Part shown: one piece after another, positions 1 through 60,782 of the stretch
Layout: each line of letters begins with the position of its first letter
Position numbering within the stretch: the stretch's first letter is position 1
Source of the DNA: Eledone cirrhosa
Lineage: Eukaryota
Direction of reading: 5' to 3'
Length of the DNA: 64,000 bases
NCBI GenBank assembly: GCA_964016885.1
Contig: OZ024742.1
Span: forward strand, 320,292,001-320,356,000
The notes under the pieces: model-generated
What the model was told of the DNA's origin: nothing
Databases searched by the model: none
Seen by the model: the letters and a program-made list of their open reading frames with translations, nothing else
Translations under genes and position numbers: made by a program

Positions 1-260
1 ACACTACTCCACACACAACTACACTACTCTACACACCACTACACTACTAAACACACCACTACACTACTCTACACACCACTACACTACTCTACACACCACT
101 CCACTACACACCACTCCACTACTCTACACACCACTACACTACTCTACACACCACTACACTACACAACGCACCATTACACTACACAACACACCACTACACT
201 ACTCTACACACCACTACAATACTCTACACACCACTACACTACTCTACACACCACTTCACA
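1..260. repeat. Degenerate ~20-bp tandem repeat (ACACTACTCTACACACCACT)
   Basis: Unit visibly repeated from the window start; runs off the left edge. Confidence 0.85.
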
Positions 261-399
261 TACGACACAGAACATTACCTTCCCCCACACGTCACCACAT
301 CACAACACGACGCACATACACAATAAACTACACACACATAGACACGTACGCACACAGACGTACGCACACACCCACACACCCACATATACACACATACAC

Positions 400-9991: not shown

Positions 9992-10316
9992 AAACTTGTC
10001 GGAACTCCATGCCAGGCTTTTGAGTGGTTTATCCCCTCTATGGTCTGTGTTTTACGTCTCAAGTATCCATGCACAACTTTTTCTGTAAATTGGTAAATTT
10101 TTTATCTTGTTTGAACATTGAATAGGATCTTCCGATTTCTCTGGGTGAGAGATTTATATCAGGCTTTATTCCATATCTCTCCTCCAGATCAGTCGCTATT
10201 CTAATGATATTTTTTTTTTCATGCTCATAAACCTGGGCAAGAAGGTTGCCAACCTTTTTCCTCTGTTGAAGGTGTTGCTTCAGTGTTACTATCCGGGTCT
10301 CATATGTTGTTAATAT

Positions 10317-12698: not shown

Positions 12699-12805
12699 AA
12701 AACCGAACTTTTGGGGGTTCAGATTGTATGTATGTATGTTTGTATGTATGTATATTCTTCTGGTTTTATAATTTCACAAATTTTTGTATGTATGCATGCG
12801 TGCAT

Positions 12806-12966: not shown

Positions 12967-13001
<35 letters not shown>

Positions 13002-13061
13002 CCTACCTACCTACCTACCTACCTACCTACCTACCTACCTACCTACCTACCTACCTACCTA
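12806..13061. repeat. (TACC)n/(TATC)n microsatellite
   Basis: Seen directly. Confidence 0.97.
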
Positions 13062-16000: not shown

Positions 16001-16425
16001 ACACCTTTCTCTCTGGCCAACAACTGGTCCGTTTTTCCGATATCATTTAGGAAGAAGGATCAGGATGGAGAGAGAGGTGCTGCACCCCAGTCATTTTTAT
16101 GAAAGGTGGGTGAAAGTGGCGAGAATGGCCCGTGTGAATGGGCCTTCACTCTACATCAGACTATAGGTGAGGAAGATGAAAGACCAAGGGAGCACCCCCT
16201 CTCTGTGCTCCTGAGGAGGTTGCACACTTTTTTTCGGGGGTGTGTGCGACCCCCCAAGGCGCCTCCTCCCTATGGAGGATTTTGTTATAAATTTTATTTT
16301 GTTATATTTTATTTTATTTTTATATTTTGTTATTGCCTCCTCCTTATTGAGGACGCCTTGTTATGTAAACTCCCCCCATTGTACTTGTCCCACTTTTGAT
16401 GCCCTGGTGGCAAATAAAAAGAAAG
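13062..16425 (+). mobile_element. L1/Tx1-clade LINE copy A, 5'-truncated inside the APE domain, inactivated
   Basis: GDWN, SYLDRF, SDH, GPGYWKLN, KSPGLDG, FRPITLLN, KAFDRV, IRQGCPLS, YADD, CPRC..H..HC; TAG stops at ~14187 and ~15452; AATAAAAAGAAA end. Confidence 0.93.
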
Positions 16426-16812
16426 TTATCTATCTATCTACCTACCTACCTACGTACCTACCTATCTCTCTATCTACCTACCTACCTACCTACCTACCTA
16501 CCTACCTACCTACCTACCTACCTACCTACCTACCTACCTATCTCTCTATCTACCTACCTACCTACCTACCTACCTACCTATCTCTCTACCTACCTACCTA
16601 CCTACCTACCTACCTACCTACCTACCTACCTACCTACCTATCTCCCTACCTACCTACCTACCTACCTACCTACCTACCTACCTACCTACCTACCTACCTA
16701 CCTACCTACCTACCTACCTACCTACCTACCTACCTACATGCCTACCTACGTACCTATCTATCTATCTACCTACCTACCTACCTACCTACCTACCTACCTA
16801 CCTATCTATCTA
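16426..16812. repeat. (TACC)n microsatellite between the two Tx1 copies
   Basis: Seen directly. Confidence 0.97.
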
Positions 16813-19800: not shown

Positions 19801-20786
19801 TGGGTCAAGCAAAGACCGAGGAAAATGGGCGACTGGCACATCGAATGTGCTCAGGCGCTCACAGCCCTCTGGCAGGCGGACCCGGCGATCAGTGGAGACT
19901 CCACTTCGTCATTCTATAGAGGGTTGATCCGCAGCAAGTGCGTCGACGTGCTAGGTGAAAGTCTGGGCGTAGAGGAAGACGAACTGGCCAGTCTGTTCGG
20001 TAGGACCTTCCGCCCGAGACCGATGAACAACTTCCAAAAATCCCTGGCCTGGCAGTGCTACCGAGGCGCTCTACCAGTTCGAGACAAGCTCTACAGACAT
20101 GGGCGCCCGAGCAGGGACCCTGCAAAAAAGATCTGTCCGAGGTGCGTGCGAGACGAAGAAACCGTCGCGCACGCATTCATACACTGCCCGGGCGTCACCG
20201 ACCTGTGGGGCTTTGTAGAACGACTATTGTCGCGGGTGGGACCAATCCGGTTGACCACCGAGTCCATTGTCATGATCAAACCGCCACCCTCCTTCAAAAA
20301 CGAAGGAGAGGCCGTTTTCCTTTGTGTGATAGCTATTGCGAAAGAGGTTGTATGTTGGACAAGGTTGAAAGGGCTGAGGTCAGACACCTTTCTCTCCGGC
20401 CAACAACTGATTCTTTTTTACAAATACCACTTTGGAAGAAGAATCAGGATGGAGAGAGAGGTGCTGTACCCCAGCAAGTTTTATGTAAGGTGGGTGAAAG
20501 TGGCGAGAATGGCCCGAGTGAATGGGCCTTCCTCTATATCAGCCTGTAGGTTGAGGAAAAGGAGGAGGAGAGGAAAGGAGTACAAACTCTTCGTACTCCT
20601 GGAGATGAGGGTTGCACACTTTTTCGAGGGTATGTGTTACCCATATGAACTGTCTCCCCCTATTGGGGAAAATCGACTAATTTTTAAATTACATTTGTGA
20701 TAATATTTTACACGTTTTTATTGTATGTAAATTTCCCCCTTCGTATTTGTCCCCTTCTTTTGTGCCCCTGTGGCTAATAAAGAAAC
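16813..20786 (+). mobile_element. L1/Tx1-clade LINE copy B: ORF1 tail plus complete but disrupted ORF2 (APE-RT-CCHC)
   Basis: Pro/Thr-rich ORF end at 17107; ORF2 ATG 17145 MANIRVGYVNVRGL; ~29-bp deletion near 19031 relative to copy A; TAA at ~19525; AATAAAGAAA end. Confidence 0.93.
17145..20700 (+). pseudogene. ORF2 (apurinic endonuclease plus reverse transcriptase) of Tx1 copy B
   Basis: Pieces 17145-~19030, 18928-19527 and 19534-20700 are collinear with copy A. Confidence 0.9.
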
Positions 20787-26098: not shown

Positions 26099-26839
<741 letters not shown>

Positions 26840-26845
<6 letters not shown>

Positions 26846-27255
26846 TAAGATCAAAAGATGGTTAAAGGAGTTCCATGTATTTTATTATGCGCATTTCAAA
26901 AACAAACATCATCATGCAATAATATTTGTGTTTTCATCAGATAAAACAGGAGAACATGATATGAAGGCTAAAAAACACTTGTGCATAGTGCAGTTTTAAA
27001 TCAACATATAACTGCACTATCCACAAGTGATTTTTAGCCTTCATATCATGTTCTCCTGTTTTATCTGATGAAAACACAAATATTATTGCATGATGTTGTT
27101 TGTTTTTGAAATGCGCATAATAAAATACATGGAACTCCTTTAACCATCTTTTGATCTTATATATTATGTATACTCCAGTCCTACAAACTGTAGAGTGCTT
27201 CTTATCCGATATCTGCATTGCTTTATTGTACTACAATAAAACTCACCTCCAACAT
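26840..27255. mobile_element. Solo fold-back PLE terminal repeat (pLTR), with an HHR in each arm
   Basis: 26843-27008 is the reverse complement of 27011-27162; same family as 53491-53888 and 57218-57625. Confidence 0.9.
27057..27127 (+). ncRNA. Type I hammerhead ribozyme (pLTR family A)
   Basis: TGTTTTAT-CTGATGA-stem II-GAAA-TGCGCA-TA-ATAAAATA; stem I pairs, stem III palindromic ATGCGCAT, AUA cleavage triplet. Confidence 0.85.
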
Positions 27256-27276
27256 TAAATAAATATATATATATAT

Positions 27277-27350
<74 letters not shown>

Positions 27351-27641
27351 TATATATATAAATATATATATATAAATATATATATATAAATATATATATA
27401 TAAATATATATATATAAATATATATATATAAATATATATATATAAATATATATATATAAATATATATATATATAAATATATATATATATAAATATATATA
27501 TATATAAATATATATATATATAAATATATATAAATATATATATATATAAATATATATATATATAAATATATATATATATAAATATATATATATATAAATA
27601 TATATATATATAAATATATATAAATATATATATATATAAAT

Positions 27642-27732: not shown

Positions 27733-28002
27733 AATATATATATATAAATATATATATATATAAATATAGTATTAAGGATACTATTTATGGTTATGTATGT
27801 AATAAAGCCTTTTATGGTTATATATTTTTTATACAAACCCTAAACAGTGAAAGATAGTCATTAATTACTCTCTTATTACCAGTAAGATAAATAGCTCAAT
27901 GTAGTAACATCTGTTGCTTTACAGAGCAGTTATATAGAGATTACAATAATCAAAGTTCAGTTTAAATCACCGTAAAACACTAATCACCTTTGAAGACCAA
28001 TT

Positions 28003-29535
28003 ATGGACCCGCAAGGATACGCAAAACAACTTACCATGGGGTCTAGTGACTCGGCGCAGGTCACTGATTTAGTCGGCCTATATTTACTTAACCAAATCCA
28101 TAAGGACCTTCCTTACCTCAGCGGTGGTTTGTATCGCGACGATGCTCTTCTACTTATAGATTATAAAAAATTCAATATAGAAAGAACTAGAAAACTATTG
28201 CACAAAGCATTCAAAAACTATAACCTTAGTATTACCATGGACAAAAACACCAAAAACGTCAACTTCCTAGACGCCACACTCTACCTAGACTCAATGATAT
28301 ATGCACCTTTCCACAAACCTAATGAAAAACTCATCTACGTAGATACCAAGTCTAACCACCCTAGATCTATATTAAACTCTATCTCTAAGGGAGTATCTAA
28401 TAGAATCTCTAATCTTTCCTATGACATAAACACATTTAACAATAACTCCCAATATTATAATCAAGCATTAGCTAGATCAGGCCATAATACAGGGATAGAG
28501 TTCCTACCTACAAAAACGCATAGCTACAACATTATTTCACACAGCATGTCCATGAGAAAATTTAATAATAGGAATAGCAACCACACACACACTAATAGAG
28601 ATGATAACAACAAAAGTAACCCACACTACAGAAATTACCATAGTAACATTAAAGGAAACAATTCACCAGACATAAAAAACAGAAATAGAAGAAGAAATAA
28701 TACATTTTTCAACCCTCCTTTCAATCTAAACGTTTCTACCAACCTACCTAGGGCTTTCTTCTCACTACTGGATAAACACTTCCCATCCGGCCACAAGTAC
28801 CATAGCCTTTTAAACAAAAACACTATTAAAATCTCATACTCCACTACGCCTAACTTGGCATACCACATAGCTAGTAGCAATAAAAGAAAAATTAATTCTT
28901 ACTTCCAACAAACTAAATAACAACAGACGATAAACCTTCAAAATAACATTCAAAATAACATTATAGCAACTAACCATAATATCAATAGAAATAATAGTAT
29001 TAGTGCTAGTGTAAACATTAACGCTGTGAACGACAACCCACATAACCATAACCCTATAGCTAACATCCAAACTTCTACACAGCATATTAACCGGCAGACT
29101 AACACCCAGAATAATTGTAACTGTAGATCAAATAGAACCTGCCCTTTAGATAGAAAAGGCTTAACCAAGGATATCATATACTCATGTACAGTCACAACTA
29201 ACAACTCTTCCGAAACCTATATAGGCTCTACTTCTAACTGCTTCAAAACTAGATACAATTCGCACCTCCACTCTTTCAAAAAACACAGTCCACTTCACTA
29301 TCTAGCTACATACACTATCTAAAAACTAAAAATAAAATATATACACTTAAATGGGAGATGGTAGGTAGTGCAACATCGTACAAACCACCTAATAAATTTT
29401 GTAACCTCTGTCTACTAGAGACCCATACTATCATCTTCTCTAACCATAATCTCCTTAATAAAAAATCAGAAGTGTTCGCATCTTGCCAACACCGCTTCCG
29501 ACACTCTTTCCAAAATTTTAAACCCTATATATAAC
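28003..29535 (+). pseudogene. PLE RT C-terminal half plus GIY-YIG endonuclease (frameshifted)
   Basis: MGSSDSAQVTDLVG, GLYRDD, VNFLD, SNHP, FFNPPF, KISYS; CNCRSNRTCP, IIY..YIGST..FKTRYNSH; later CNLCL. Confidence 0.88.
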
Positions 29536-43626: not shown

Positions 43627-43826
43627 NNNNNNNNNNNNNNNNNNNNNNNNNNNNNNNNNNNNNNNNNNNNNNNNNNNNNNNNNNNNNNNNNNNNNNNNNN
43701 NNNNNNNNNNNNNNNNNNNNNNNNNNNNNNNNNNNNNNNNNNNNNNNNNNNNNNNNNNNNNNNNNNNNNNNNNNNNNNNNNNNNNNNNNNNNNNNNNNNN
43801 NNNNNNNNNNNNNNNNNNNNNNNNNN
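43627..43826. other. Assembly gap (200 N)
   Basis: Run of N. Confidence 1.
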
Positions 43827-43918: not shown

Positions 43919-43956
<38 letters not shown>

Positions 43957-43961
<5 letters not shown>

Positions 43962-44121
43962 ATTTAAAACTGCACTATCCACAAGTGTTTTTTAGCCTTC
44001 ATATCATGTTCTCCTGTTTTATCTGATGAAAACACAAATATTATTGCATGATGATGTTTGTTTTTGAAATGCGCATAATAAAATACATGGAACTCCTTTA
44101 ACCATCTTTTGATCTTATATT
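43957..44121 (+). mobile_element. PLE pLTR fragment with HHR family A (core 44023-44077)
   Basis: Matches ~57368-57535; CTGATGA..GAAATGCGCATA. Confidence 0.9.
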
Positions 44122-44179
44122 ATATATATTCATTTCATTCATTTTGTTCCATTCATTTCATTTCATTTCATTTCATTCA

Positions 44180-44523
44180 TTCATTTTGTTTCAATTTATC
44201 GTTTTCGGTATGCCTAACCGATTTAACTCACTCAATATGCAAATTAGGCTGCTCAGCCGTTAATTTTCATAAGGAAAGGAAAGTATATACTTTCGAACGT
44301 TCAACTATCTGGCAGATGGGTAAACGGTGCTGATGATAGCTAACAAGCTTGAAACTAGTACATCGTTCCTGTGTCAGTGTTGAACAAAAAGGTGACGTGG
44401 TTGCCTTAACACCGTATGGCATAAATTCAGGCTGTTCAGTTTGTTTACAAACGAACAAAGCGACGTTAGCGCCGCTAAACTGATACGTGCATATATGTAT
44501 GTGTACCTGTATGCATATGTATA

Positions 44524-44558
<35 letters not shown>

Positions 44559-44999
44559 GTGCATGCTACTGTACGTCTGTATACATATATGTATGTACGT
44601 ATACATGCATACTTACATTTAAGTAAGTGCCATACTAAGAGTGAGAAATGAAATTTCGTTTTCATTTTGTTTCAATTTATCGTTTTCGGTATGCCTAACC
44701 GATTTAACTCACTCAATATGCAAATTAGGCTGCTCAGCCGTTAATTTTCATAAGGAAAGTATATACTTTCGAACGTTCAACTATCTGGCAGATGGGTAAA
44801 CGGTGCTGATGATAGCTAACAAGCTTGAAACTAGTACATCGTTCCTGTGTCAGTGTTGAACAAAAAGGTGACGTGGTTGCCTTAACACCGTATGGCATAA
44901 ATTCAGGCTGTTCAGTTTGTTTACAAACGAACAAAGCGACGTTAGCGCCGCTAAACTGATACGTGCATATATGTATGTGTACCTGTATGCATATGTATA

Positions 45000-45034
<35 letters not shown>

Positions 45035-45475
45035 GTGCATGCTACTGTACGTCTGTATACATATATGTATGTACGTATACATGCATACTTACATTTAAGT
45101 AAGTGCCATACTAAGAGTGAGAAATGAAATTTCGTTTTCATTTTGTTTCAATTTATCGTTTTCGGTATGCCTAACCGATTTAACTCACTCAATATGCAAA
45201 TTAGGCTGCTCAGCCGTTAATTTTCATAAGGAAAGTATATACTTTCGAACGTTCAACTATCTGGCAGATGGGTAAACGGTGCTGATGATAGCTAACAAGC
45301 TTGAAACTAGTACATCGTTCCTGTGTCAGTGTTGAACAAAAAGGTGACGTGGTTGCCTTAACACCGTATGGCATAAATTCAGGCTGTTCAGTTTGTTTAC
45401 AAACGAACAAAGCGACGTTAGCGCCGCTAAACTGATACGTGCATATATGTATGTGTACCTGTATGCATATGTATA

Positions 45476-45510
<35 letters not shown>

Positions 45511-45951
45511 GTGCATGCTACTGTACGTCTGTATACATATATGTATGTACGTATACATGCATACTTACATTTAAGTAAGTGCCATACTAAGAGTGAGAAA
45601 TGAAATTTCGTTTTCATTTTGTTTCAATTTATCGTTTTCGGTATGCCTAACCGATTTAACTCACTCAATATGCAAATTAGGCTGCTCAGCCGTTAATTTT
45701 CATAAGGAAAGTATATACTTTCGAACGTTCAACTATCTGGCAGATGGGTAAACGGTGCTGATGATAGCTAACAAGCTTGAAACTAGTACATCGTTCCTGT
45801 GTCAGTGTTGAACAAAAAGGTGACGTGGTTGCCTTAACACCGTATGGCATAAATTCAGGCTGTTCAGTTTGTTTACAAACGAACAAAGCGACGTTAGCGC
45901 CGCTAAACTGATACGTGCATATATGTATGTGTACCTGTATGCATATGTATA

Positions 45952-45986
<35 letters not shown>

Positions 45987-46427
45987 GTGCATGCTACTGT
46001 ACGTCTGTATACATATATGTATGTACGTATACATGCATACTTACATTTAAGTAAGTGCCATACTAAGAGTGAGAAATGAAATTTCGTTTTCATTTTGTTT
46101 CAATTTATCGTTTTCGGTATGCCTAACCGATTTAACTCACTCAATATGCAAATTAGGCTGCTCAGCCGTTAATTTTCATAAGGAAAGTATATACTTTCGA
46201 ACGTTCAACTATCTGGCAGATGGGTAAACGGTGCTGATGATAGCTAACAAGCTTGAAACTAGTACATCGTTCCTGTGTCAGTGTTGAACAAAAAGGTGAC
46301 GTGGTTGCCTTAACACCGTATGGCATAAATTCAGGCTGTTCAGTTTGTTTACAAACGAACAAAGCGACGTTAGCGCCGCTAAACTGATACGTGCATATAT
46401 GTATGTGTACCTGTATGCATATGTATA

Positions 46428-46462
<35 letters not shown>

Positions 46463-46903
46463 GTGCATGCTACTGTACGTCTGTATACATATATGTATGT
46501 ACGTATACATGCATACTTACATTTAAGTAAGTGCCATACTAAGAGTGAGAAATGAAATTTCGTTTTCATTTTGTTTCAATTTATCGTTTTCGGTATGCCT
46601 AACCGATTTAACTCACTCAATATGCAAATTAGGCTGCTCAGCCGTTAATTTTCATAAGGAAAGTATATACTTTCGAACGTTCAACTATCTGGCAGATGGG
46701 TAAACGGTGCTGATGATAGCTAACAAGCTTGAAACTAGTACATCGTTCCTGTGTCAGTGTTGAACAAAAAGGTGACGTGGTTGCCTTAACACCGTATGGC
46801 ATAAATTCAGGCTGTTCAGTTTGTTTACAAACGAACAAAGCGACGTTAGCGCCGCTAAACTGATACGTGCATATATGTATGTGTACCTGTATGCATATGT
46901 ATA

Positions 46904-46938
<35 letters not shown>

Positions 46939-47379
46939 GTGCATGCTACTGTACGTCTGTATACATATATGTATGTACGTATACATGCATACTTACATTT
47001 AAGTAAGTGCCATACTAAGAGTGAGAAATGAAATTTCGTTTTCATTTTGTTTCAATTTATCGTTTTCGGTATGCCTAACCGATTTAACTCACTCAATATG
47101 CAAATTAGGCTGCTCAGCCGTTAATTTTCATAAGGAAAGTATATACTTTCGAACGTTCAACTATCTGGCAGATGGGTAAACGGTGCTGATGATAGCTAAC
47201 AAGCTTGAAACTAGTACATCGTTCCTGTGTCAGTGTTGAACAAAAAGGTGACGTGGTTGCCTTAACACCGTATGGCATAAATTCAGGCTGTTCAGTTTGT
47301 TTACAAACGAACAAAGCGACGTTAGCGCCGCTAAACTGATACGTGCATATATGTATGTGTACCTGTATGCATATGTATA

Positions 47380-47410
<31 letters not shown>

Positions 47411-47851
47411 GTGCATGCTACTGTACGTCTGTATACATATATGTATGTACGTATACATGCATACTTACATTTAAGTAAGTGCCATACTAAGAGTGAGAAA
47501 TGAAATTTCGTTTTCATTTTGTTTCAATTTATCGTTTTCGGTATGCCTAACCGATTTAACTCACTCAATATGCAAATTAGGCTGCTCAGCCGTTAATTTT
47601 CATAAGGAAAGTATATACTTTCGAACGTTCAACTATCTGGCAGATGGGTAAACGGTGCTGATGATAGCTAACAAGCTTGAAACTAGTACATCGTTCCTGT
47701 GTCAGTGTTGAACAAAAAGGTGACGTGGTTGCCTTAACACCGTATGGCATAAATTCAGGCTGTTCAGTTTGTTTACAAACGAACAAAGCGACGTTAGCGC
47801 CGCTAAACTGATACGTGCATATATGTATGTGTACCTGTATGCATATGTATA

Positions 47852-47886
<35 letters not shown>

Positions 47887-48327
47887 GTGCATGCTACTGT
47901 ACGTCTGTATACATATATGTATGTACGTATACATGCATACTTACATTTAAGTAAGTGCCATACTAAGAGTGAGAAATGAAATTTCGTTTTCATTTTGTTT
48001 CAATTTATCGTTTTCGGTATGCCTAACCGATTTAACTCACTCAATATGCAAATTAGGCTGCTCAGCCGTTAATTTTCATAAGGAAAGTATATACTTTCGA
48101 ACGTTCAACTATCTGGCAGATGGGTAAACGGTGCTGATGATAGCTAACAAGCTTGAAACTAGTACATCGTTCCTGTGTCAGTGTTGAACAAAAAGGTGAC
48201 GTGGTTGCCTTAACACCGTATGGCATAAATTCAGGCTGTTCAGTTTGTTTACAAACGAACAAAGCGACGTTAGCGCCGCTAAACTGATACGTGCATATAT
48301 GTATGTGTACCTGTATGCATATGTATA

Positions 48328-48362
<35 letters not shown>

Positions 48363-48803
48363 GTGCATGCTACTGTACGTCTGTATACATATATGTATGT
48401 ACGTATACATGCATACTTACATTTAAGTAAGTGCCATACTAAGAGTGAGAAATGAAATTTCGTTTTCATTTTGTTTCAATTTATCGTTTTCGGTATGCCT
48501 AACCGATTTAACTCACTTAATATGCAAATTAGGCTGCTCAGCCGTTAATTTTCATAAGGAAAGTATATACTTTCGAACGTTCAACTATCTGGCAGATGGG
48601 TAAACGGTGCTGATGATAGCTAACAAGCTTGAAACTAGTACATCGTTCCTGTGTCAGTGTTGAACAAAAAGGTGACGTGGTTGCCTTAACACCGTATGGC
48701 ATAAATTCAGGCTGTTCAGTTTGTTTACAAACGAACAAAGCGACGTTAGCGCCGCTAAACTGATACGTGCATATATGTATGTGTACCTGTATGCATATGT
48801 ATA

Positions 48804-48838
<35 letters not shown>

Positions 48839-49279
48839 GTGCATGCTACTGTACGTCTGTATACATATATGTATGTACGTATACATGCATACTTACATTT
48901 AAGTAAGTGCCATACTAAGAGTGAGAAATGAAATTTCGTTTTCATTTTGTTTCAATTTATCGTTTTCGGTATGCCTAACCGATTTAACTCACTCAATATG
49001 CAAATTAGGCTGCTCAGCCGTTAATTTTCATAAGGAAAGTATATACTTTCGAACGTTCAACTATCTGGCAGATGGGTAAACGGTGCTGATGATAGCTAAC
49101 AAGCTTGAAACTAGTACATCGTTCCTGTGTCAGTGTTGAACAAAAAGGTGACGTGGTTGCCTTAACACCGTATGGCATAAATTCAGGCTGTTCAGTTTGT
49201 TTACAAACGAACAAAGCGACGTTAGCGCCGCTAAACTGATACGTGCATATATGTATGTGTACCTGTATGCATATGTATA

Positions 49280-49314
<35 letters not shown>

Positions 49315-49755
49315 GTGCATGCTACTGTACGTCTGTATACATATATGTATGTACGTATACATGCATACTTACATTTAAGTAAGTGCCATACTAAGAGTGA
49401 GAAATGAAATTTCGTTTTCATTTTGTTTCAATTTATCGTTTTCGGTATGCCTAACCGATTTAACTCACTCAATATGCAAATTAGGCTGCTCAGCCGTTAA
49501 TTTTCATAAGGAAAGTATATACTTTCGAACGTTCAACTATCTGGCAGATGGGTAAACGGTGCTGATGATAGCTAACAAGCTTGAAACTAGTACATCGTTC
49601 CTGTGTCAGTGTTGAACAAAAAGGTGACGTGGTTGCCTTAACACCGTATGGCATAAATTCAGGCTGTTCAGTTTGTTTACAAACGAACAAAGCGACGTTA
49701 GCGCCGCTAAACTGATACGTGCATATATGTATGTGTACCTGTATGCATATGTATA

Positions 49756-49790
<35 letters not shown>

Positions 49791-50231
49791 GTGCATGCTA
49801 CTGTACGTCTGTATACATATATGTATGTACGTATACATGCATACTTACATTTAAGTAAGTGCCATACTAAGAGTGAGAAATGAAATTTCGTTTTCATTTT
49901 GTTTCAATTTATCGTTTTCGGTATGCCTAACCGATTTAACTCACTCAATATGCAAATTAGGCTGCTCAGCCGTTAATTTTCATAAGGAAAGTATATACTT
50001 TCGAACGTTCAACTATCTGGCAGATGGGTAAACGGTGCTGATGATAGCTAACAAGCTTGAAACTAGTACATCGTTCCTGTGTCAGTGTTGAACAAAAAGG
50101 TGACGTGGTTGCCTTAACACCGTATGGCATAAATTCAGGCTGTTCAGTTTGTTTACAAACGAACAAAGCGACGTTAGCGCCGCTAAACTGATACGTGCAT
50201 ATATGTATGTGTACCTGTATGCATATGTATA

Positions 50232-50266
<35 letters not shown>

Positions 50267-50707
50267 GTGCATGCTACTGTACGTCTGTATACATATATGC
50301 ATGTACGTATACATGCATACTTACATTTAAGTAAGTGCCATACTAAGAGTGAGAAATGAAATTTCGTTTTCATTTTGTTTCAATTTATCGTTTTCGGTAT
50401 GCCTAACCGATTTAACTCACTCAATATGCAAATTAGGCTGCTCAGCCGTTAATTTTCATAAGGAAAGTATATACTTTCGAACGTTCAACTATCTGGCAGA
50501 TGGGTAAACGGTGCTGATGATAGCTAACAAGCTTGAAACTAGTACATCGTTCCTGTGTCAGTGTTGAACAAAAAGGTGACGTGGTTGCCTTAACACCGTA
50601 TGGCATAAATTCAGGCTGTTCAGTTTGTTTACAAACGAACAAAGCGACGTTAGCGCCGCTAAACTGATACGTGCATATATGTATGTGTACCTGTATGCAT
50701 ATGTATA

Positions 50708-50742
<35 letters not shown>

Positions 50743-51183
50743 GTGCATGCTACTGTACGTCTGTATACATATATGTATGTACGTATACATGCATACTTAC
50801 ATTTAAGTAAGTGCCATACTAAGAGTGAGAAATGAAATTTCGTTTTCATTTTGTTTCAATTTATCGTTTTCGGTATGCCTAACCGATTTAACTCACTCAA
50901 TATGCAAATTAGGCTGCTCAGCCGTTAATTTTCATAAGGAAAGTATATACTTTCGAACGTTCAACTATCTGGCAGATGGGTAAACGGTGCTGATGATAGC
51001 TAACAAGCTTGAAACTAGTACATCGTTCCTGTGTCAGTGTTGAACAAAAAGGTGACGTGGTTGCCTTAACACCGTATGGCATAAATTCAGGCTGTTCAGT
51101 TTGTTTACAAACGAACAAAGCGACGTTAGCGCCGCTAAACTGATACGTGCATATATGTATGTGTACCTGTATGCATATGTATA

Positions 51184-51218
<35 letters not shown>

Positions 51219-51659
51219 GTGCATGCTACTGTACGTCTGTATACATATATGTATGTACGTATACATGCATACTTACATTTAAGTAAGTGCCATACTAAGA
51301 GTGAGAAATGAAATTTCGTTTTCATTTTGTTTCAATTTATCGTTTTCGGTATGCCTAACCGATTTAACTCACTCAATATGCAAATTAGGCTGCTCAGCCG
51401 TTAATTTTCATAAGGAAAGTATATACTTTCGAACGTTCAACTATCTGGCAGATGGGTAAACGGTGCTGATGATAGCTAACAAGCTTGAAACTAGTACATC
51501 GTTCCTGTGTCAGTGTTGAACAAAAAGGTGACGTGGTTGCCTTAACACCGTATGGCATAAATTCAGGCTGTTCAGTTTGTTTACAAACGAACAAAGCGAC
51601 GTTAGCGCCGCTAAACTGATACGTGCATATATGTATGTGTACCTGTATGCATATGTATA

Positions 51660-51694
<35 letters not shown>

Positions 51695-52135
51695 GTGCAT
51701 GCTACTGTACGTCTGTATACATATATGTATGTACGTATACATGCATACTTACATTTAAGTAAGTGCCATACTAAGAGTGAGAAATGAAATTTCGTTTTCA
51801 TTTTGTTTCAATTTATCGTTTTCGGTATGCCTAACCGATTTAACTCACTCAATATGCAAATTAGGCTGCTCAGCCGTTAATTTTCATAAGGAAAGTATAT
51901 ACTTTCGAACGTTCAACTATCTGGCAGATGGGTAAACGGTGCTGATGATAGCTAACAAGCTTGAAACTAGTACATCGTTCCTGTGTCAGTGTTGAACAAA
52001 AAGGTGACGTGGTTGCCTTAACACCGTATGGCATAAATTCAGGCTGTTCAGTTTGTTTACAAACGAACAAAGCGACGTTAGCGCCGCTAAACTGATACGT
52101 GCATATATGTATGTGTACCTGTATGCATATGTATA

Positions 52136-52170
<35 letters not shown>

Positions 52171-52611
52171 GTGCATGCTACTGTACGTCTGTATACATAT
52201 ATGTATGTACGTATACATGCATACTTACATTTAAGTAAGTGCCATACTAAGAGTGAGAAATGAAATTTCGTTTTCATTTTGTTTCAATTTATCGTTTTCG
52301 GTATGCCTAACCGATTTAACTCACTCAATATGCAAATTAGGCTGCTCAGCCGTTAATTTTCATAAGGAAAGTATATACTTTCGAACGTTCAACTATCTGG
52401 CAGATGGGTAAACGGTGCTGATGATAGCTAACAAGCTTGAAACTAGTACATCGTTCCTGTGTCAGTGTTGAACAAAAAGGTGACGTGGTTGCCTTAACAC
52501 CGTATGGCATAAATTCAGGCTGTTCAGTTTGTTTACAAACGAACAAAGCGACGTTAGCGCCGCTAAACTGATACGTGCATATATGTATGTGTACCTGTAT
52601 GCATATGTATA

Positions 52612-52653
<42 letters not shown>

Positions 52654-53091
52654 CATGCTACTGTACGTCTGTATACATATATGTATGTACGTATACATGC
52701 ATACTTACATTTAAGTAAGTGCCATACTAAGAGTGAGAAATGAAATTTCGTTTTCATTTTGTTTCAATTTATCGTTTTCGGTATGCCTAACCGATTTAAC
52801 TCACTCAATATGCAAATTAGGCTGCTCAGCCGTTAATTTTCATAAGGAAAGTATATACTTTCGAACGTTCAACTATCTGGCAGATGGGTAAACGGTGCTG
52901 ATGATAGCTAACAAGCTTGAAACTAGTACATCGTTCCTGTGTCAGTGTTGAACAAAAAGGTGACGTGGTTGCCTTAACACCGTATGGCATAAATTCAGGC
53001 TGTTCAGTTTGTTTACAAACGAACAAAGCGACGTTAGCGCCGCTAAACTGATACGTGCATATATGTATGTGTACCTGTATGCATATGTATA

Positions 53092-53126
<35 letters not shown>

Positions 53127-53242
53127 GTGCATGCTACTGTACGTCTGTATACATATATGTATGTACGTATACATGCATACTTACATTTAAGTAAGTGCCA
53201 TACTAAGAGTGAGAAATGAAATTTCGTTTTCATTTTGTTTCA

Positions 53243-53248
<6 letters not shown>
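44180..53248 (+). repeat. Tandem array of 19 x 476-bp monomers, each with an HHR (retrozyme-like satellite)
   Basis: ORF-track period 476 (472, 480 and 481 in three units); every unit has AACGGTG-CTGATGA-TAGCTAACAAGCTT-GAAA-CTAG-TA-CATCGTT. Confidence 0.95.
44299..44385 (+). ncRNA. Type I hammerhead ribozyme (family D), first monomer; recurs every ~476 bp
   Basis: Core CTGATGA 44330-36, GAAA 44351-54, GUA cleavage after 44360; stem I AACGGTG/CATCGTT extended by CTGGCA/TGTCAG and GTTCAAC/GTTGAAC; stem II AGCT/AGCT; palindromic ACTAGT stem III. Confidence 0.9.
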
Positions 53249-53322
<74 letters not shown>

Positions 53323-53377
53323 ATGTATATATATATGTATATATATATGTATATATATATATATATGTATGTATATG

Positions 53378-53452
<75 letters not shown>

Positions 53453-53457
53453 GTATG

Positions 53458-53489
<32 letters not shown>

Positions 53490-53614
53490 ATGTAGGAGGT
53501 GAGTTTTATTGTAGTACAATAAAGCAATGCAGATATCGGATAAGAAGCACTCTACAGTTTGTGGGACTGGAGTATGCATAATATAAGATCAAAAGATGGT
53601 TAAAGGAGTTCAAT

Positions 53615-53687
53615 ATATTTTATTATGCGCATTTCAAAAACAAACATCATCAAACAATAATATTTGTGTTTTCATCAGATAAAACAG
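53615..53687 (-). ncRNA. HHR family A in the 3' pLTR, sense to the PLE ORF
   Basis: TCATCAG at 53672-78 and TATGCGCATTTC upstream on the + strand. Confidence 0.85.
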
Positions 53688-54685
53688 GAGAACATGATAT
53701 GAAGGCTAAAAAAACACTTGTTGATAGTGCAGTTTTAAATCAACATATGAAAAGTGGTTTTAGATTGATGTGTGATATTGGGAAAAATATTTTAGAGGGG
53801 GGGAGAGAAAAGGATGAAAAGGGAAGGAGATGAGAGGGAGAGATGGGTGATAGAGAGAAAGAGATAGTTTTTATAACTGAGAGGAGATATATTTTATATA
53901 GAGGGGTTGAAAACCGTTGGAAGATACTGTATAAATTAAAAATTTTGAAAATTAACGAAGGGAGGATATGTGCGAGGAAAAAATATATTATATTTAGGGA
54001 GGGGGGGGTGGAAAGGATGAAAAAAAGGGGAGGAGATGAGAGTGAAAGTGGAAAGGGAGAGATGGGTGATAGAGAGAAAGAGATAGTTTTTATAACTGAG
54101 AAAAAGATATAATGTTTTAATATAGAGAGGTTGGGAACCGTTGGAAGATAATGTATAAATTAAAGGAATTTGAAAATTAACAAAGGGAAATTATGTATGG
54201 AGATAGAGAGAAAAAAAAAAAATAATTGTGGGTGAATATTCTAACGTCAAAAGAAGAAATGTAGGAATTTTAAAATTAGCAAAGAGAAAAAGTTTATGTG
54301 TAGAAGGATTTGAGAAAAATAATGTGAAGTTAAAGTTTGTATATTGAATTCATATGTATTAATAATGAGTTCGTTGATGGGGAGAAAAAAATAATAATAA
54401 ATTAAGGATGAAATTGAGATTAAAAAGATTTATGATAGAGAGAAAAAATAATAATGATTGCGGATGAATACTCAAAATGTCAAAAACAAATGTTATTGTT
54501 TTACGAGGAGATAGAATGAGGGTGATGAGTAAACGAGTATTATAGAGTGTATAATGCCCTTTAAAGTAAGGTAGATGGGTATATTTTAAAGAATATATGA
54601 GTATATATTAAAAAAATATATAATAATAAATTAAGGATGAAATTGAGATTAAAAAGATTTATGATAGAGGGAAAAAAATAATAAT

Positions 54686-54860
54686 TGTTTCTACTATTGG
54701 CACAAGGCCAGAAATTACCCAGTACATTACTGGTACTTTATTTTATCGACCCCGTAAGGATGAAAGGCAAAGTTAACCTCGGCGGGATTTGAACTCAGAA
54801 TAGCAAGGGCCGTAACTCTATGCATCAAAGCATGGCGTCCGACCCTCTACCGATACTGCC
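54686..54860 (-). mobile_element. SINE S1 inserted in the PLE 3' UTR
   Basis: Interrupts one copy of a duplicated UTR segment; empty site at ~54455. Confidence 0.92.
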
Positions 54861-55054
54861 ATGATTGCGGATGAATATTCAAAATGTCAAAAACAAATGT
54901 TATTGTTTTACGAGAAGATAGGATGAGGGTAATGAGTAAACGAGTATTATAGAGTGTATAATGCCCTTTAAAGTAAGGTAGATGGGTATATTTTAAAGAG
55001 GTGTATGTATATGTGCCTTTGAGAAAAGATTCTAAATTGATAAAGAATTGAATA

Positions 55055-57214
55055 TTAACTGTATACTTTGTGAAAAGTTCTATGGAATTTATGCAGGCAG
55101 ATGGAAAACAAATCCGAGCGTCTATTTATTATGGATTCTAGGTTAGAGATAATGGTAAATTTTTCATTTAGGCAGAGATTACAGATTTTAGATAGAGAGC
55201 TGTTCAAGTACGAGGATGCAGAAGAAATCTTTTTCCAAAAGATGTTATATTTAATGTTTTTGTCTTTTAAGGACCATATGAGTTCTGAGAGAGCAGTGTT
55301 AGTTCTTTTAAGTTTGTATTTGAAAGATGAATGATGATTATAGAGACGAGCTTTAAAAGAGGTGGAAGTGGAGCCAAAATAGGTGAAGGAATTGGTGCTA
55401 GTTATAATTTTACATTCATAAATTAAGTTTTTATCGAGGCAATGGTTGTTGAGAGGACATTTATTTTTAATGCGGCAGTTGCAATTAGAGAGATTATTAA
55501 TGAGTGATCTAGTGTTATCTATAGAAGGAATTGGATTGGAGAAGTTGTTTGCGATAGGAATAATAGGAATAATAGTTTCTTGATTTAGAGTTGGATTATG
55601 AACATTTAGCGAAGTTGTGTTTGACGTTGCATTTGGGTTTACAGAAGTTAGCCTAGGGTTTACAATGACGTCAGGAGTACTATTATTGTTATTATGAAAT
55701 TCAATATTGGAAGGAAGAGATTTAGTATTTAATATTTTGTTGTTGTGTTTAGAGATGATGTTGGAAATATTGGAGGATGTAGAATACGAAAATTTGATGG
55801 TGTGTTTGTTAAATATTTTACTATAGATATGTGAGGGAGGGAAGCATTTATTTAAGGCACTAAAAAATAATTTAGGAATATTGTTATTAATAGAGATGGA
55901 GAAAGGAGCATTATACCAGATTATGTTTTTGTATCTAGGTCTTTTATTAAAATTATTGGAATGGTTATGATTAAATATTCTACTGTAAGTTTTCCTAGAA
56001 TTTGTTTCTTTATTATATTTGATTTTATCTGGATAGCCGGCTTTAGAAAGTGCGTTATTATAGTAATTGGCGTTAGCATCAAAGATGTTTTTATTAGAAG
56101 ATATGTTAGATATTCTATTTCCAATATTATTAACTATAGCATTCTTGATATTGGTAGGATGGTTAGATTTAAAGTTAACATAATTAAGATTCTCATTGTT
56201 TTTATGGTAAGGGTAATATAGGCCAGTGTCAAGATTAAGAGATACATCCAAGAAATTAGCTAGTTTGGTACTATTATCAAATTCAATTTTTAGGTTATGT
56301 TGGTTAAAGAGATTACGTATATTGTTCTTAATAATATTAAGTTTAACTATATTGCAATTTAGGATAGTAAAGAGTTCATCGTCACGATAAATTCCACCGC
56401 GAAGTTGAGGAATTTTCCGACTCAAAGAGTTCAAAATGAAGATACCAATTAAATCAGTCAATTGGGATGAATCGGATGCTCCCATTGTGATGTCGAAGTT
56501 GTTAGAGGTATCGGCTCTGGTCCAATATTCGTTGTTGAACTCTAGGATGGTTTTACGTGCGGTGAGGATGATGTGAAGTTCATCTGTGGTGATGTCAGAA
56601 TATTTAAGTGCGAAAGATAGAGCATTATTGAGAAGTGAAGGCGAAATGGAGGAATAGTAGCTGGCAATATCGAATTGAATAAATTTTAGTTTGTTTTTAT
56701 TATCCAATTTGTTGAACCAGCCAATCACTTCAGAAGTACCAAACCATAAATTTAGGTTTAAAGAAGAGCAATTAGAACTAACCTGTGGGATAATCCTATC
56801 CAAGATGGCTTTACTAACAACCCCCAGATCAGATTTAGAGGGGGCGATTAATCTAACAGGTAGTTCAGTGCGAAAATTGTTTTTGTGATCCTTGAGATTT
56901 ATCCTCGGAGTTCTTGGGAGGAATGGTTCGGTCTTTTTTTCAATGCCAAGTTTTGACATAATCTCATAGGCTTCAAGGTTTATGCATTCTAAATTTTCAT
57001 GGTTGGTTTTACGATACTTTTTCCTAAGTTCCTTTAGGATAAGGTTGTTATAATTATCCTTGGAAATACCATATAGGTTATTGGTTTTGTCAGAGTGGAC
57101 TAAAACATTTTTTGAGGAATTTAGGTTAGAGATTGTGTTCTTGAGATTTACAAGGTGCTCTTGTCCTTTGTAAGGGTATCTCTTGAATTTAAGATTTTTT
57201 ATAATTTTAGTTAA
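55055..57214 (-). CDS. PLE reverse transcriptase plus GIY-YIG endonuclease, open frame, 5'-truncated
   Basis: 634-aa ORF extends upstream without stop (..VHSDKTNNLY..); KDHK, VRLI, FDIASYYSSI, MGASDS, GIYRDD, NFLDV, SNHP, CNCRIKNKCP, LIY..YFGST, CNLCL, CLH. Confidence 0.9.
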   Translation of the reverse strand, partial: LTKIIKNLKFKRYPYKGQEHLVNLKNTISNLNSSKNVLVHSDKTNNLYGISKDNYNNLILKELRKKYRKTNHENLECINLEAYEIMSKLGIEKKTEPFLPRTPRINLKDHKNNFRTELPVRLIAPSKSDLGVVSKAILDRIIPQVSSNCSSLNLNLWFGTSEVIGWFNKLDNKNKLKFIQFDIASYYSSISPSLLNNALSFALKYSDITTDELHIILTARKTILEFNNEYWTRADTSNNFDITMGASDSSQLTDLIGIFILNSLSRKIPQLRGGIYRDDELFTILNCNIVKLNIIKNNIRNLFNQHNLKIEFDNSTKLANFLDVSLNLDTGLYYPYHKNNENLNYVNFKSNHPTNIKNAIVNNIGNRISNISSNKNIFDANANYYNNALSKAGYPDKIKYNKETNSRKTYSRIFNHNHSNNFNKRPRYKNIIWYNAPFSISINNNIPKLFFSALNKCFPPSHIYSKIFNKHTIKFSYSTSSNISNIISKHNNKILNTKSLPSNIEFHNNNNSTPDVIVNPRLTSVNPNATSNTTSLNVHNPTLNQETIIPIIPIANNFSNPIPSIDNTRSLINNLSNCNCRIKNKCPLNNHCLDKNLIYECKIITSTNSFTYFGSTSTSFKARLYNHHSSFKYKLKRTNTALSELIWSLKDKNIKYNIFWKKISSASSYLNSSLSKICNLCLNEKFTIISNLESIINRRSDLFSICLHKFHRTFHKVYS

Positions 57215-57429
57215 TTAATCTCCTCTCAGTTATAAAAACTATCTCTTTCTCTCTATCACCCATCTCTCCCTCTCATCTCCTTCCCTTTTCATCCTTTTCT
57301 CCCCACCCCCCCTCTCTAAATAAAATATTTTTCCCAATATCACACATCAATCTAAAACCACTTTTCATATGTTGATTTAAAACTGCACTATCAACAAGTG
57401 TTTTTTTTAGCCTTCATATCATGTTCTCC

Positions 57430-57500
57430 TGTTTTATCTGATGAAAACACAAATATTATTGTTTGATGATGTTTGTTTTTGAAATGCGCATAATAAAATA
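57430..57500 (+). ncRNA. HHR family A in the inverted 5' pLTR
   Basis: CTGATGA 57438-44, GAAATGCGCATA 57481-92. Confidence 0.85.
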
Positions 57501-57621
57501 TATTGAACTCCTTTAACCATCTTTTGATCTTATATTATGCATACTCCAGTCCCACAAACTGTAGAGTGCTTCCTATCCGATATCTGCATTGCTTTATTGT
57601 ACTACAATAAAACTCACCTCC

Positions 57622-59527
<1,906 letters not shown>

Positions 59528-60782
59528 ACCTGGCTAAGACCAAAGTGCTAGTTTGTAGGAAAGAAAACAAGGCGGCGGTCCCTTCTGGGAAATGGTCGTG
59601 CTCGGTGTGTAGGAAAGGCGTAGGTAGAAACTCCATTTTATGTCCTAAATGCAAAGTATGGGTGCATAAAAGATGTAGTGGGATCACAGGTAAGCTAACT
59701 AAGAACATAGATTTTACATGTGGCCGGTGCTCTGGTGCAATAAGTAGCAGCAAGTGCCCACAAACTACTAGCTCTTTCAATTGCGCAGAGGGTTCTATAG
59801 AAATAGTGGACAGCTTCCGTTATCTGGGCGATAAAATCAGCAGTGGGGGAGGGTGCTCTGAAAGTACTGTAGCTAGAGTCAGAACTGGTTGGAAAAAGTT
59901 CAGAGAGCTTATACCACTATTAGCTGCTAAAGGGTTCTCACTAAAAATGAAAGGCAGGTTGTACGATGCCTGCATACGAACAGCAATGCTGCATGGCAGT
60001 GAGACCTGGGCATTGTGTGCAGAGGATATACGCAGACTAGAGAGGAACGAAGCTTGCATGCTCCGCTGGATGTGTAACAGTAATATACGTGAACGGCAAA
60101 GCATAAACGAACTAAGGAAAAAATTAGAGATAAGAGGGATCAGATGTTGTTTACTCGAGAGAAGGCTACGTTGGTATGGACACGTGATGCGCATGAAAGT
60201 CGATAGCTGTATAACAAAGTGCAGGGCAATAAAGATAGACGGTAGTCACGGAATAGGCAGACCTAGAAAAACCTGGGACGAGCTGATAAACTCCGACATC
60301 ACACACTTACACCTCTCCAAGACAATGTCACTGGACCGAGACCTTTGGCGGTACTCAGTAACAGAGAAGACCCGCCTTACCTAAATATATAGTAAAACCT
60401 ACTCCAGCCAGTAGGCATCTCTAACAAAATACACCCCGTCCCACCACCCCCACCCCCACCCGATCCACACCACCCCGTTCTATGTAAAGTTATGTTGGTG
60501 CCGCGCCTTCGAGGCCGAAACAAATGAGATCGTGTAGGTGTCACGACAAAAAAACACACAGTCCACGCTGTAATGTGGCCGTGTAGGCAACACGGTAAAA
60601 ACCTCCCAGACCCACACTGTAAATGTGGTTGGTGTTAGGAAGGGCATCCAACTGTAGAAAACCTGCCAGACAGTCCTATGCGAGCAAGACAATCACTCTT
60701 GCCTCAAGTGGGACTACCCCCGTCCAAACCCATGCAAGCGTGGAACACGGACGTTAAACGTTGATGATGATGATGATGATGA
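59528..60782 (+). mobile_element. 5'-truncated RTE-group LINE (RT C-terminus with PHD-like finger, 3' UTR, (GAT)n tail)
   Basis: [52 protein letters not shown]. Confidence 0.9.

Follow-up and report, generated by a model that had tools for sequence, protein, structure and literature searches.

Structure of the array and its surroundings

The window, a 64,000-nucleotide stretch of Eledone cirrhosa DNA, contains a forward-strand tandem array with 19 unit starts, as assembled, between 44180 and 52753. TRF analysis of the window gave a period of 476 with 19.0 copies at 99%, which bears out the original prediction of 19 near-identical 476-bp monomers. The list of unit differences in that prediction also proved exact. 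Spacing is 476 bp except in unit 1 (481 bp, from a 5-nt AAGGA/GGAAA duplication) and in units 7 and 18 (472 and 480 bp, from length changes in the TA tract). Two units carry one substitution each, 48518 C>T and 50300 T>C, with no others in the array, and 14 of the 19 units are identical. The GC content of the 476-bp unit is 0.35. Its one 137-codon stop-to-stop frame had no match in Pfam, and an RT/GIY-YIG frame was absent both from the array and from the arm continuations at 100 loci of the same family. The features of the region are as follows.

43627..43826, no strand: assembly gap of 200 N, 350 bp left of the array
43954..44131, forward: pseudo-LTR (pLTR) fragment of Penelope-like family "X," a neighbor outside the element
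44128..44179, forward: 5'-junction stutter, TTCAT/TTCATTTTGTT, repeats of the unit's first bases
44180..53248, forward: putative retrozyme insertion, single-armed, 19 units of 472 to 481 bp plus ~19 nt of a 20th
44298..44384, forward: type I hammerhead of unit 1, core 44330-44360, predicted cut after GUA at 44360
44775-44861, forward: type I hammerhead of unit 2, a repeat of the unit 1 ribozyme (one per unit)
44959..45078, forward: long, self-complementary TA/TG hairpin of unit 2, unit positions ~299-418, predicted double-stranded RNA
53180..53189, forward: "short" 3' end site, unit positions 428-437, putative second RT start site
53188..53248, forward: ~60-nt "tail" between the two end sites, with predicted hairpins
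53246..53489, no strand: (TA)n tract at the 3' end of the array, probable target
53490..57620, reverse: neighboring Hydra-type Penelope-like element (PLE), 5'-truncated, candidate helper clade
53490-53888, reverse: 3' pLTR (terminal repeat) of the neighboring PLE
55055-57214, reverse: RT/GIY-YIG frame of the neighboring PLE, 719 aa
57218-57620, forward: inverted pLTR (terminal repeat) of the neighboring PLE

The tail terminates at the "long" 3' end site (unit position 476+15..18), and the "short" end site, which the inverted arm uses at other loci, is passed through in this array. A short TA run (~44117-44128) lies to the left. The original prediction overlooked this context of stutter and (TA)n end, and also that the terminal repeats on either side of the array come from a different PLE, which has a hammerhead of its own with a palindromic AUGCGCAU stem III and an AUA triplet. 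The neighboring PLE carries the Hydra motifs DKT, CxCX5C, CxxC, and CxH.

Given the 200-N gap 350 bp leftward and the identity of 14 of 19 units, the length of the array might be an assembly artifact. We give this explanation almost no weight, since loci elsewhere hold 17 to 20 units with clean unique ends, units bear locus-specific variants, and contigs of public run X1, which may be the assembly's own sample, cover the unit very deeply. Contig counts in the public runs were 4,834 for X1, 26 for X5, 3 for X6, and 0 for X3; the small counts do not show that the family has spread to other organisms.

A predicted hammerhead ribozyme in each unit

All 19 units have an exact copy of the 32-nt core (CUGAUGA-stem II-GAAA-CUAGUA^C), with a 4-bp stem II and a palindromic ACUAGU stem III. 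Folding of the 96-nt ribozyme reproduced stem II and the long bulged stem I that had been predicted (z = -3.1), and stem I pairing is kept between the young subfamily and older, 73%-identical ones, with one G-U/U-G flip. The description of the hammerhead as complete and intact in each monomer thus holds for the core, although stem II opens with a U-U at 10.1-11.1, where G-C is the usual pair, and stem III within a single unit amounts to 2 bp closing a 2-nt loop. U10.1-U11.1 is a natural hammerhead variant (PMC3088659).

Stem III is probably formed solely between two units. The double-hammerhead fold reaches -326.0 kcal/mol, better than the -322.0 kcal/mol of two single folds, but it sits 11 kcal/mol above the MFE, which counts against it. 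Amphibian non-LTR retrozymes are described as needing dimeric ribozymes (Cervera and de la Pena 2020, PMC7229834). The proposed Rfam hammerhead check gave no match in the window at the gathering score, including for hammerhead clan CL00010; the best ribozyme match below threshold was Hammerhead_HH9 (18.5 of 52 bits, E 0.079). The matches of the Rfam E-value scan were mostly to microRNAs, on the TA hairpin, and were taken as noise. A metagenome scan with a 30-nt core pattern returned 0 matches.

Dispersed insertions with two arms

The genome contains at least 7,868 units. Exact array ends followed by TA numbered 1,045 of the long and 685 of the short type, and reversed-pattern controls gave 0. 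The end patterns themselves required TA, but six loci picked out solely by their ribozyme region have (TA)n too, at 12 of 12 ends. The family comprises more than 1,000 dispersed insertions, and the "ribozyme satellite" of the original prediction is not a solitary one. The array in the window falls in the youngest sub-lineage.

At 69 of 100 long-end loci, a head-to-head inverted arm adjoins the first. These partner arms end short in 62 cases and long in none; 4 end otherwise and 3 run off the stretch. The outer ends of the arms thus lie at two fixed sites in (TA)n, one per arm, the second arm ending ~60 nt earlier in the 62 short-partner loci. The remaining 31 loci, the window's being of that kind, have no adjoining inverted arm. 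The part of C1 below 288 Mb has 66 short ends; for 37 of them a divergent long end is no more than 20 kb away (0.85 expected by chance), and no divergent long-long or short-short pairs occur there. Six of 100 long arms stop 44 to 60 nt from the end, beside the short start site. By analogy with Penelope, the ~60-nt offset is best read as the "tail," with two putative RT start sites, one for each DNA end. The rule of one long and one short end is not universal among the PLEs here, as the neighboring copy of PLE X has the long end on both arms.

Across insertions, 3' ends are fixed and 5' ends are random. Arm lengths are broadly spread and the two arms are uncorrelated (rho 0.02), and 38 of 100 arms of pure unit hold at least 2 units. 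The two-armed, Penelope-type architecture was the main point that the original prediction missed.

Variants shared between arms and growth of arrays

Mean differences per 284 nt were 0.49 within the same arm and 0.37 across arms, versus 2.86 between loci. TA-tract length is locus-specific in both arms, and locus-private variants are common to both. The TA/TG hairpin, too, has a length specific to the locus, and many A>G changes lie inside it.

Strict AB-AB dimer arrays occur at two loci; read on the ribozyme strand, every alternating difference is A>G. At one (L072+L189), 11 full units alternate between types A and B with 10 alternating differences outside the TA tract, and the type-A marks are present in the inverted arm too; at the other (L202), 8 units alternate with 13 differences. 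To judge from the sequences, it is as if one edited sense RNA had been copied 4 to 6 times. Without these two loci, A>G accounted for 7 of 22 shared variants versus 11 of 154 singletons (P = 0.002). A conservative spectrum test was made without L072 (hyper-edited) and without L046 and L048 (nested older copies). Two observations weigh the other way. Singletons show an excess of T>C (25, versus 11 A>G), and a mirror control at one GTAC site was weak (15 A>G versus 7 T>C loci, C1 and C2), 389G being also an allele of an older lineage. Taken together, the more than 1,000 insertions, the fixed 3' and random 5' ends, the arm-shared variants, and the period-2 A>G marks support the original prediction of a young non-coding retroelement made by repeated reverse transcription.

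A different history would start from PLE-type insertions barely longer than one unit, to which unequal crossover or slippage later added further units, as in an ordinary young minisatellite. Local amplification through unequal crossover is invoked, and is the model preferred, in the discussion of bioRxiv 10.64898/2026.07.22.740005, and at least one array has grown at the DNA level (C3, 12.27-12.31 Mb). L206 (at least 40 kb) has recurring variant blocks, and its units all carry a dead cut site, GUG; L122 has 6 of 8 units as a block with a common variant, and an inserted AB dimer could also be amplified in this way. However, inverted arms would have to expand separately and yet stay identical, while their lengths are uncorrelated. 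Variants confined to a subset of units are rare and singletons common, the reverse of what ongoing crossover would leave, and the 19 units in the window hold two SNPs, each in one unit. We regard crossover as a quite improbable general explanation.

Form of the RNA template

We also weighed double priming by a PLE on a linear template, either a multimer or a cleaved monomer or dimer with precise jumps, and no circle. In vitro, PAc accepts linear RNA that has not been processed, and mutating the ribozyme is described as leaving insertion unaffected (PMC11167929). A homogeneous young source array would, moreover, give homogeneous daughters too. Short-arm 5' ends also cluster at unit positions 177-202, 13 of 51 lying just 3' of the cut site (3.9 expected), and could reflect linear cleaved templates; this breakpoint test left out hairpin positions 290-425 (ambiguous), four more long-arm rows, and one short-arm row.

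On the other hand, L100 has five ribozymes without a cut site, with a 7-nt deletion ending there in 5 of 5 units, and yet stops at position 180, which favors an RT pause at stem I. A linear multimer would be expected to show unit-by-unit editing, whereas the singletons lack an A>G excess and edits recur at an exact period of 1 or 2. Template jumps usually leave scars, yet of 415 cores only 6 have indels near the cut site and the other 409 are seamless there. Overall, a linear template appears unlikely, though less so than growth by crossover.

A ligation scar at the cut site was considered. Deletion loci number 7 to 8 in the ribozyme and 3 in a control stretch, which is not clear enrichment, and of 8 such loci genome-wide only 2 to 3 reach the cut site, so the scar reading was rated weak.

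Search for an autonomous helper

Hydra-clade Penelope elements are abundant in the genome. Hydra-type endonuclease candidates numbered 53,191, and the flanks of 29 of these, 27 belonging to one family, were examined; 30 relatives turned up when the window's PLE was used as a protein query. No homology of the unit to pLTRs was found in the 29 flanks or in the window's PLE X, where the only matches were low-complexity TA/TG. No shared PLE body lies upstream of the 31 single-arm loci, and a PLE frame adjoins one of them, in the opposite orientation. One candidate in 31 for a chimeric PLE-retrozyme insertion (L060) was not persuasive.

These results bear on whether the unit is the pLTR of an unsampled autonomous PLE and the arrays are solo-pLTR by-products. 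The inverted arm, tail, TA target, and type I ribozyme with palindromic stem III are all those of PLE ends, and of 57 Xenopus retrozyme families, 24 have Repbase TE matches, almost always to PLEs (bioRxiv 10.64898/2026.07.22.740005); the sample of 29 flanks, mostly from one family, also leaves room for such an element. Against this, 0 of 31 single-arm loci run into a shared upstream body, the unit forms the 3' end of a PLE frame at 0 of 29 older-subfamily loci, and the multi-unit arms of pure unit require a unit-only template. We consider this reading very improbable, slightly more so than crossover growth. Likewise, the 31 single-arm loci and 29 flanks do not point to a PLE terminal repeat amplified by unequal crossover, the alternative raised with the original prediction. 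Descent of the unit from an ancient pLTR is likely. Since no PLE with the same tail or ribozyme was found in the samples, the helper is inferred from architecture only.

A model for retrozyme insertion

We consider it probable that the array in the window is one insertion of a non-coding retrozyme, trans-mobilized by a PLE, whose RNA, probably a circle, was copied repeatedly. Arrays would be transcribed into multimers, in which the ACUAGU palindromes of two neighboring hammerheads would pair and allow cleavage after GUA; a host ligase would then close 476-nt monomers, and sometimes 952-nt dimers, into circles. A lone circle would have no stem III partner and so would be spared from cleavage. 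The strand-biased A>G clusters suggest A-to-I editing of the long hairpins. At a (TA)n tract, cleavage by the PLE RT/endonuclease would leave two broken DNA ends, and from both of these the enzyme would copy the ribozyme-strand RNA, a dimeric protein priming one end at each site, for which PAc offers an in vitro precedent. Each RT would circle its template until drop-off, and the two cDNA ends would be joined by microhomology. The copy in the window would have kept the long arm alone, with 19 turns. The fuller proposition, that the arrays record rolling-circle reverse transcription by a dimeric Penelope enzyme of one ADAR-edited circle for up to 20 turns, seems to us somewhat better than an even bet.

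How animal retrozymes enter the genome has so far been proposed rather than shown, and the inverted ends and tail of PLEs are debated in terms of sense versus antisense template and of self-priming versus priming from both DNA ends. Both questions can be approached by counting in this family, given its more than 1,000 young insertions, two fixed start sites, one-long-one-short rule, and molecule-specific A>G marks that recur from turn to turn, and an in vitro assay now has its RNA, start sites, and target named. If true, the rolling-circle reading would explain the inverted ends and optional tail of Penelope in one model, the template would be shown to be the sense strand and an animal circular RNA to be integrated, and RNA editing would supply new heritable variants to the family. 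We found no such insertion-level evidence for a retrozyme mechanism in print.

Comparison with known systems

Newt satellite 2, Schistosoma SM-alpha, and cricket pDo500 are, like the array here, tandem hammerhead repeats of a few hundred bases. Neither a Pol III A box nor a B box was found on the sense strand of the unit, which has three T4 runs and in these respects differs from SM-alpha.

On its sequence features, the family is best classed as a non-LTR retrozyme. The original prediction overstated the novelty of the class, as non-LTR retrozymes and their link to PLEs have already been published (PMC7229834; bioRxiv 10.64898/2026.07.22.740005). The coral, mussel, and axolotl retrozymes described in PMC7229834 are likewise low-GC (35%), dispersed tandem arrays with one type I hammerhead per unit, and integration of tandem cDNA from circular RNA by PLEs is proposed there. 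The unit here is 476 nt, versus 170 to 400 nt for their RNAs, and RNA and cleavage were shown in that study, whereas those of the Eledone family are predicted. The words "inverted" and "target site" do not occur in the main text of PMC7229834, where two-armed insertions, a tail, and a (TA)n target are not described. The retrozymes of bioRxiv 10.64898/2026.07.22.740005, whose range of 51 to 972 bp includes 476, led to the same conclusion of PLE dependence. That conclusion came from vertebrate co-occurrence and pLTR homology; here it comes from insertion anatomy, with no pLTR homologue found. In its main text "tail" and "orientation" are absent and "inverted" appears in a reference only. Two-armed anatomy may prove common among other retrozymes once they are examined in this way.

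PLEs, as described in PMC11167929, PMC8557442, and PMC3846280, likewise have a head-to-head inverted 5'-truncated arm and a tail at one end. They share AT-rich or (TA)n targets, (TA)n being the target of Hydra PLEs (PMC8557442) and of the Naiad clade, as well as microhomology junctions and a palindromic minimal stem III. PAc is described as a predicted dimer that cuts and extends both strands, with two internal start sites that delimit the tail (PMC11167929). The retrozyme differs from PLEs in having no RT/EN frame, in its tail of ~60 nt versus 30 to 40 nt, and in its arms, which are many turns of one unit. Finally, the head-to-head Penelopes of Adineta are attributed to self-priming on an antisense template (PMC3846280), whereas here the A>G marks are on the sense strand in both arms.

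The hammerhead array and its family

The array of 19 tandem ~476-bp units claimed in the original prediction (44180-53248) was borne out by unit counting and TRF, 14 of the 19 being identical, and every claimed difference was found: substitutions at 48518 and 50300 (one unit each), two changes in TA-tract length and, in unit 1, a duplication of 5 nt. Each unit carries the following features, with unit positions (q) numbered from window position 44661:

q146-152, + strand: CUGAUGA of the hammerhead
between CUGAUGA and the palindrome, + strand: stem II (4 bp), then GAAA
q170-175, + strand: palindrome ACUAGU
after q176, + strand: predicted cut site

Folding of the hammerhead region gave a long bulged stem I (z = -3.1), and the natural dimer folded as a nested double hammerhead at -326.0 kcal/mol, versus -322.0 for two single folds and -337.2 for the minimum free energy structure. 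The Rfam scan that the original prediction had named as a check returned no hammerhead match in the array at the gathering score. Position 10.1-11.1 is U-U in the array units, a pairing reported by Perreault et al. (PMC3088659) to occur in natural hammerheads and to be the best tolerated mismatch.

Searching the 3.0-Gb, (TA)n-rich assembly with the unit yielded 497 candidates, and the 40 that were scored were all 100% identical over 305 bases. The assembly holds at least 7,868 units and, by exact-pattern counts, 1,045 "long" and 685 "short" ends, two fixed 3' end sites ~60 nt apart that abut (TA)n. The hammerhead repeats are a real, young and very abundant retrozyme family, showing every retrozyme feature that can be tested in DNA. 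When 30 ribozymes from this young family and from older subfamilies (whole-unit identity, ~73%) were compared, pairing held in 92.4% of cells. One stem I pair switches between G-U and U-G; since these ribozymes are related in sequence, the flip counts as one event and lends modest support.

An older 423-bp subfamily, ~74% identical to the window unit, forms a long array on sequence C28 (~36.056-36.074 Mb; L164, L166-L168, L170-L173), with the ribozyme and the "tail" between the end sites as in the window unit. A third subfamily (L043:1168-1255, - strand; C1 123.120 Mb, in L037) has the triplet GUU, and its position 10.1-11.1 is C-A. This position is non-Watson-Crick in every subfamily seen.

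Two-armed insertions with one end site per arm

All of the first six loci fetched (6/6) were head-to-head double arrays within (TA)n, one arm ending at q476+15 to +18 and the opposite arm at ~q428-434. The end sites listed for C1 below 288 Mb comprise 66 short and 100 long ends. A divergent long end lies within 20 kb of 37 of the short ones (0.85 expected by chance), and the same set holds one same-strand long-short pair, one convergent long-long pair and no divergent like pair (long-long or short-short). Based on 100 listed long-end loci out of 1,045, an inverted arm adjoined the long arm at 69, ending at the short site in 62, at the long site in none, elsewhere in 4 and beyond the fetched stretch in 3. 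Long arms had a median length of 692 bp (maximum, 6,930) and short arms 513 bp (maximum, 6,086), arm lengths were uncorrelated within loci, and most arm junctions had 1 to 5 bases of microhomology.

The window array is of the single-armed kind, like 31 of the 100 loci. Its 5' junction (44128-44179) is a TTCAT/TTCATTTTGTT stutter, as if the reverse transcriptase had copied the same few template bases again in a telomerase-like manner; comparable stutter was not evident in the 16 bases inspected at each of the other arrays' junctions.

Penelope insertions frequently have an inverted, 5'-truncated copy and a 30- to 40-bp tail at one end (PMC8557442; PMC3846280), and the double arrays resemble them in both respects. 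The purified Penelope protein PAc, a predicted dimer, is reported to cut and extend both strands of AT-rich DNA, with reverse transcription beginning at two internal sites that are the tail limits (PMC11167929). Priming of both DNA ends, with one start site each, would produce the one-site-per-arm pattern. Six of the 100 long arms stop 44 to 60 nt from their own end, beside the short site, compared with 4 in the following 60 nt, hinting that one RNA can carry both starts. In the window's own Penelope-like element (PLE), both arms carry the long end, which counts against the generality of the rule.

Shared and probably edited templates

In 415 complete 284-nt cores from 92 loci, the mean number of differences between units was 0.49 for the same arm, 0.37 for opposite arms and 2.86 for different loci. 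The commonest core type was common to both arms in 21 of the 30 loci with cores in both; in most of the other nine, an arm held no more than two cores.

In the long arm at C1:160.405 Mb, 11 full units alternate strictly between two types, A and B, at 10 positions outside the TA tract, and on the ribozyme strand each of these 10 changes is A>G. All units share one additional A>G, type-A marks recur in the inverted arm, and the full B pattern was confined to this locus among the first 100 of 169 matches. Eight alternating units at C2:69.56 Mb differ at 13 positions, 13/13 of them A>G. With the C1:160.405 Mb locus and two loci with nested older copies omitted, A>G accounted for 7 of 22 shared variants versus 11 of 154 singletons (P = 0.002), and the A>G to T>C ratio was 7:1 versus 11:25 (P = 0.005). 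A weaker mirror test at one site gave 15 A>G versus 7 T>C loci on C1 and C2; genome-wide, additional A>G changes were present in 5/15 versus 2/25.

We read these patterns as A-to-I editing of the sense RNA, which would then be reverse-transcribed again and again; the variant spectrum points to ADAR as the probable editor. An edited sense template counts, at least for the present element, against the antisense self-priming modeled for head-to-head ends in PMC3846280. The A>G changes are identical at two loci, L201 and L208, so new insertions may also arise from copies that are already edited.

A probable circular template and growth at the DNA level

Since the cut site was seamless in 409 of 415 cores and the edits have a period of 1 or 2 instead of varying from unit to unit, we favor a ligated circle as the template RNA. 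In one array, 5/5 units carry a deletion of 7 nt that ends at the cut site; such deletions show no clear enrichment. In an interval chosen after the data were seen (q177-202), 13 of 51 short arms had their 5' ends (3.9 expected), versus 6 of 67 long arms (5.1 expected); the short-arm excess could come from pausing at stem I or from run-off on a cleaved linear RNA.

Growth at the DNA level also occurs in the family. In a satellite-like array of at least 40 kb with recurring variant blocks (L206; C3, ~12.27-12.31 Mb), every sampled unit carries A>G both in stem II and at the cut site, changing it to GUG; the array is likely an edited, inactive retrozyme that expanded into a satellite.

Neighboring PLEs and the search for a helper

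PLE sequence adjoins the array on both sides:

53490-57620, - strand: 5'-truncated copy of the Hydra-clade family PLE X (719-aa frame and inverted terminal repeat), right of the array beyond the TA tract
directly left of the array: fragment of the same PLE X terminal repeat, with a different hammerhead

Pfam did not recognize the 719-aa frame and gave weak GIY-YIG only for a related PLE fragment at 28921. The frame carries DKT, CxCX5C, CxxC and CxH, motifs of the (TA)n-targeting Hydra clade (PMC8557442). The PLE X hammerhead has a long stem II and a palindromic AUGCGCAU stem III, and a solo head-to-head PLE X pair at ~27 kb (26520-27503 and 27994-29322) combines a short end with a long one. 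Elsewhere in the window are broken LINE-type reverse transcriptase/endonuclease frames (9316-12773, -; 13000-20700, +; 59820-60384), some flanked by (CTAC)n or (TA)n, and a C-rich 39-bp minisatellite of 5.6 kb with extreme strand skew (396-6019).

The retrozyme unit had no homology to PLE X in the window, and none of the 31 single-arm loci continued into a common body. The assembly gave 53,191 first-look candidates for Hydra-type endonucleases; 29 PLE endonuclease flanks (27 of one family) shared only low-complexity sequence with the unit. An abundant Hydra-type PLE family (27 of the 30 loci L209-L238) has some frames of 850 to 920 codons and, in its 3' region, a long TA/TG hairpin followed by a hammerhead with a palindromic stem III. 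At L060:4991-7711, a Hydra PLE frame truncated at its 5' end stands head-to-head with a retrozyme long arm; this may be a chimeric insertion built from two RNAs.

Comparison with known retrozymes

PMC7229834 describes non-LTR retrozymes with their circular RNAs and puts forward the PLE hypothesis, and a 2026 preprint (bioRxiv 10.64898/2026.07.22.740005) argues for a PLE origin from distribution and homology to PLE terminal repeats. Inverted arms, tails and edited arrays are not described in the available main text of either, or in the review PMC7761336, and searches of the openly accessible literature (main texts) yielded no publication on the present family or such insertion footprints. The family works like a non-autonomous Penelope passenger. 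The retrozyme class is already known, and the insertion anatomy is the part worth following up.
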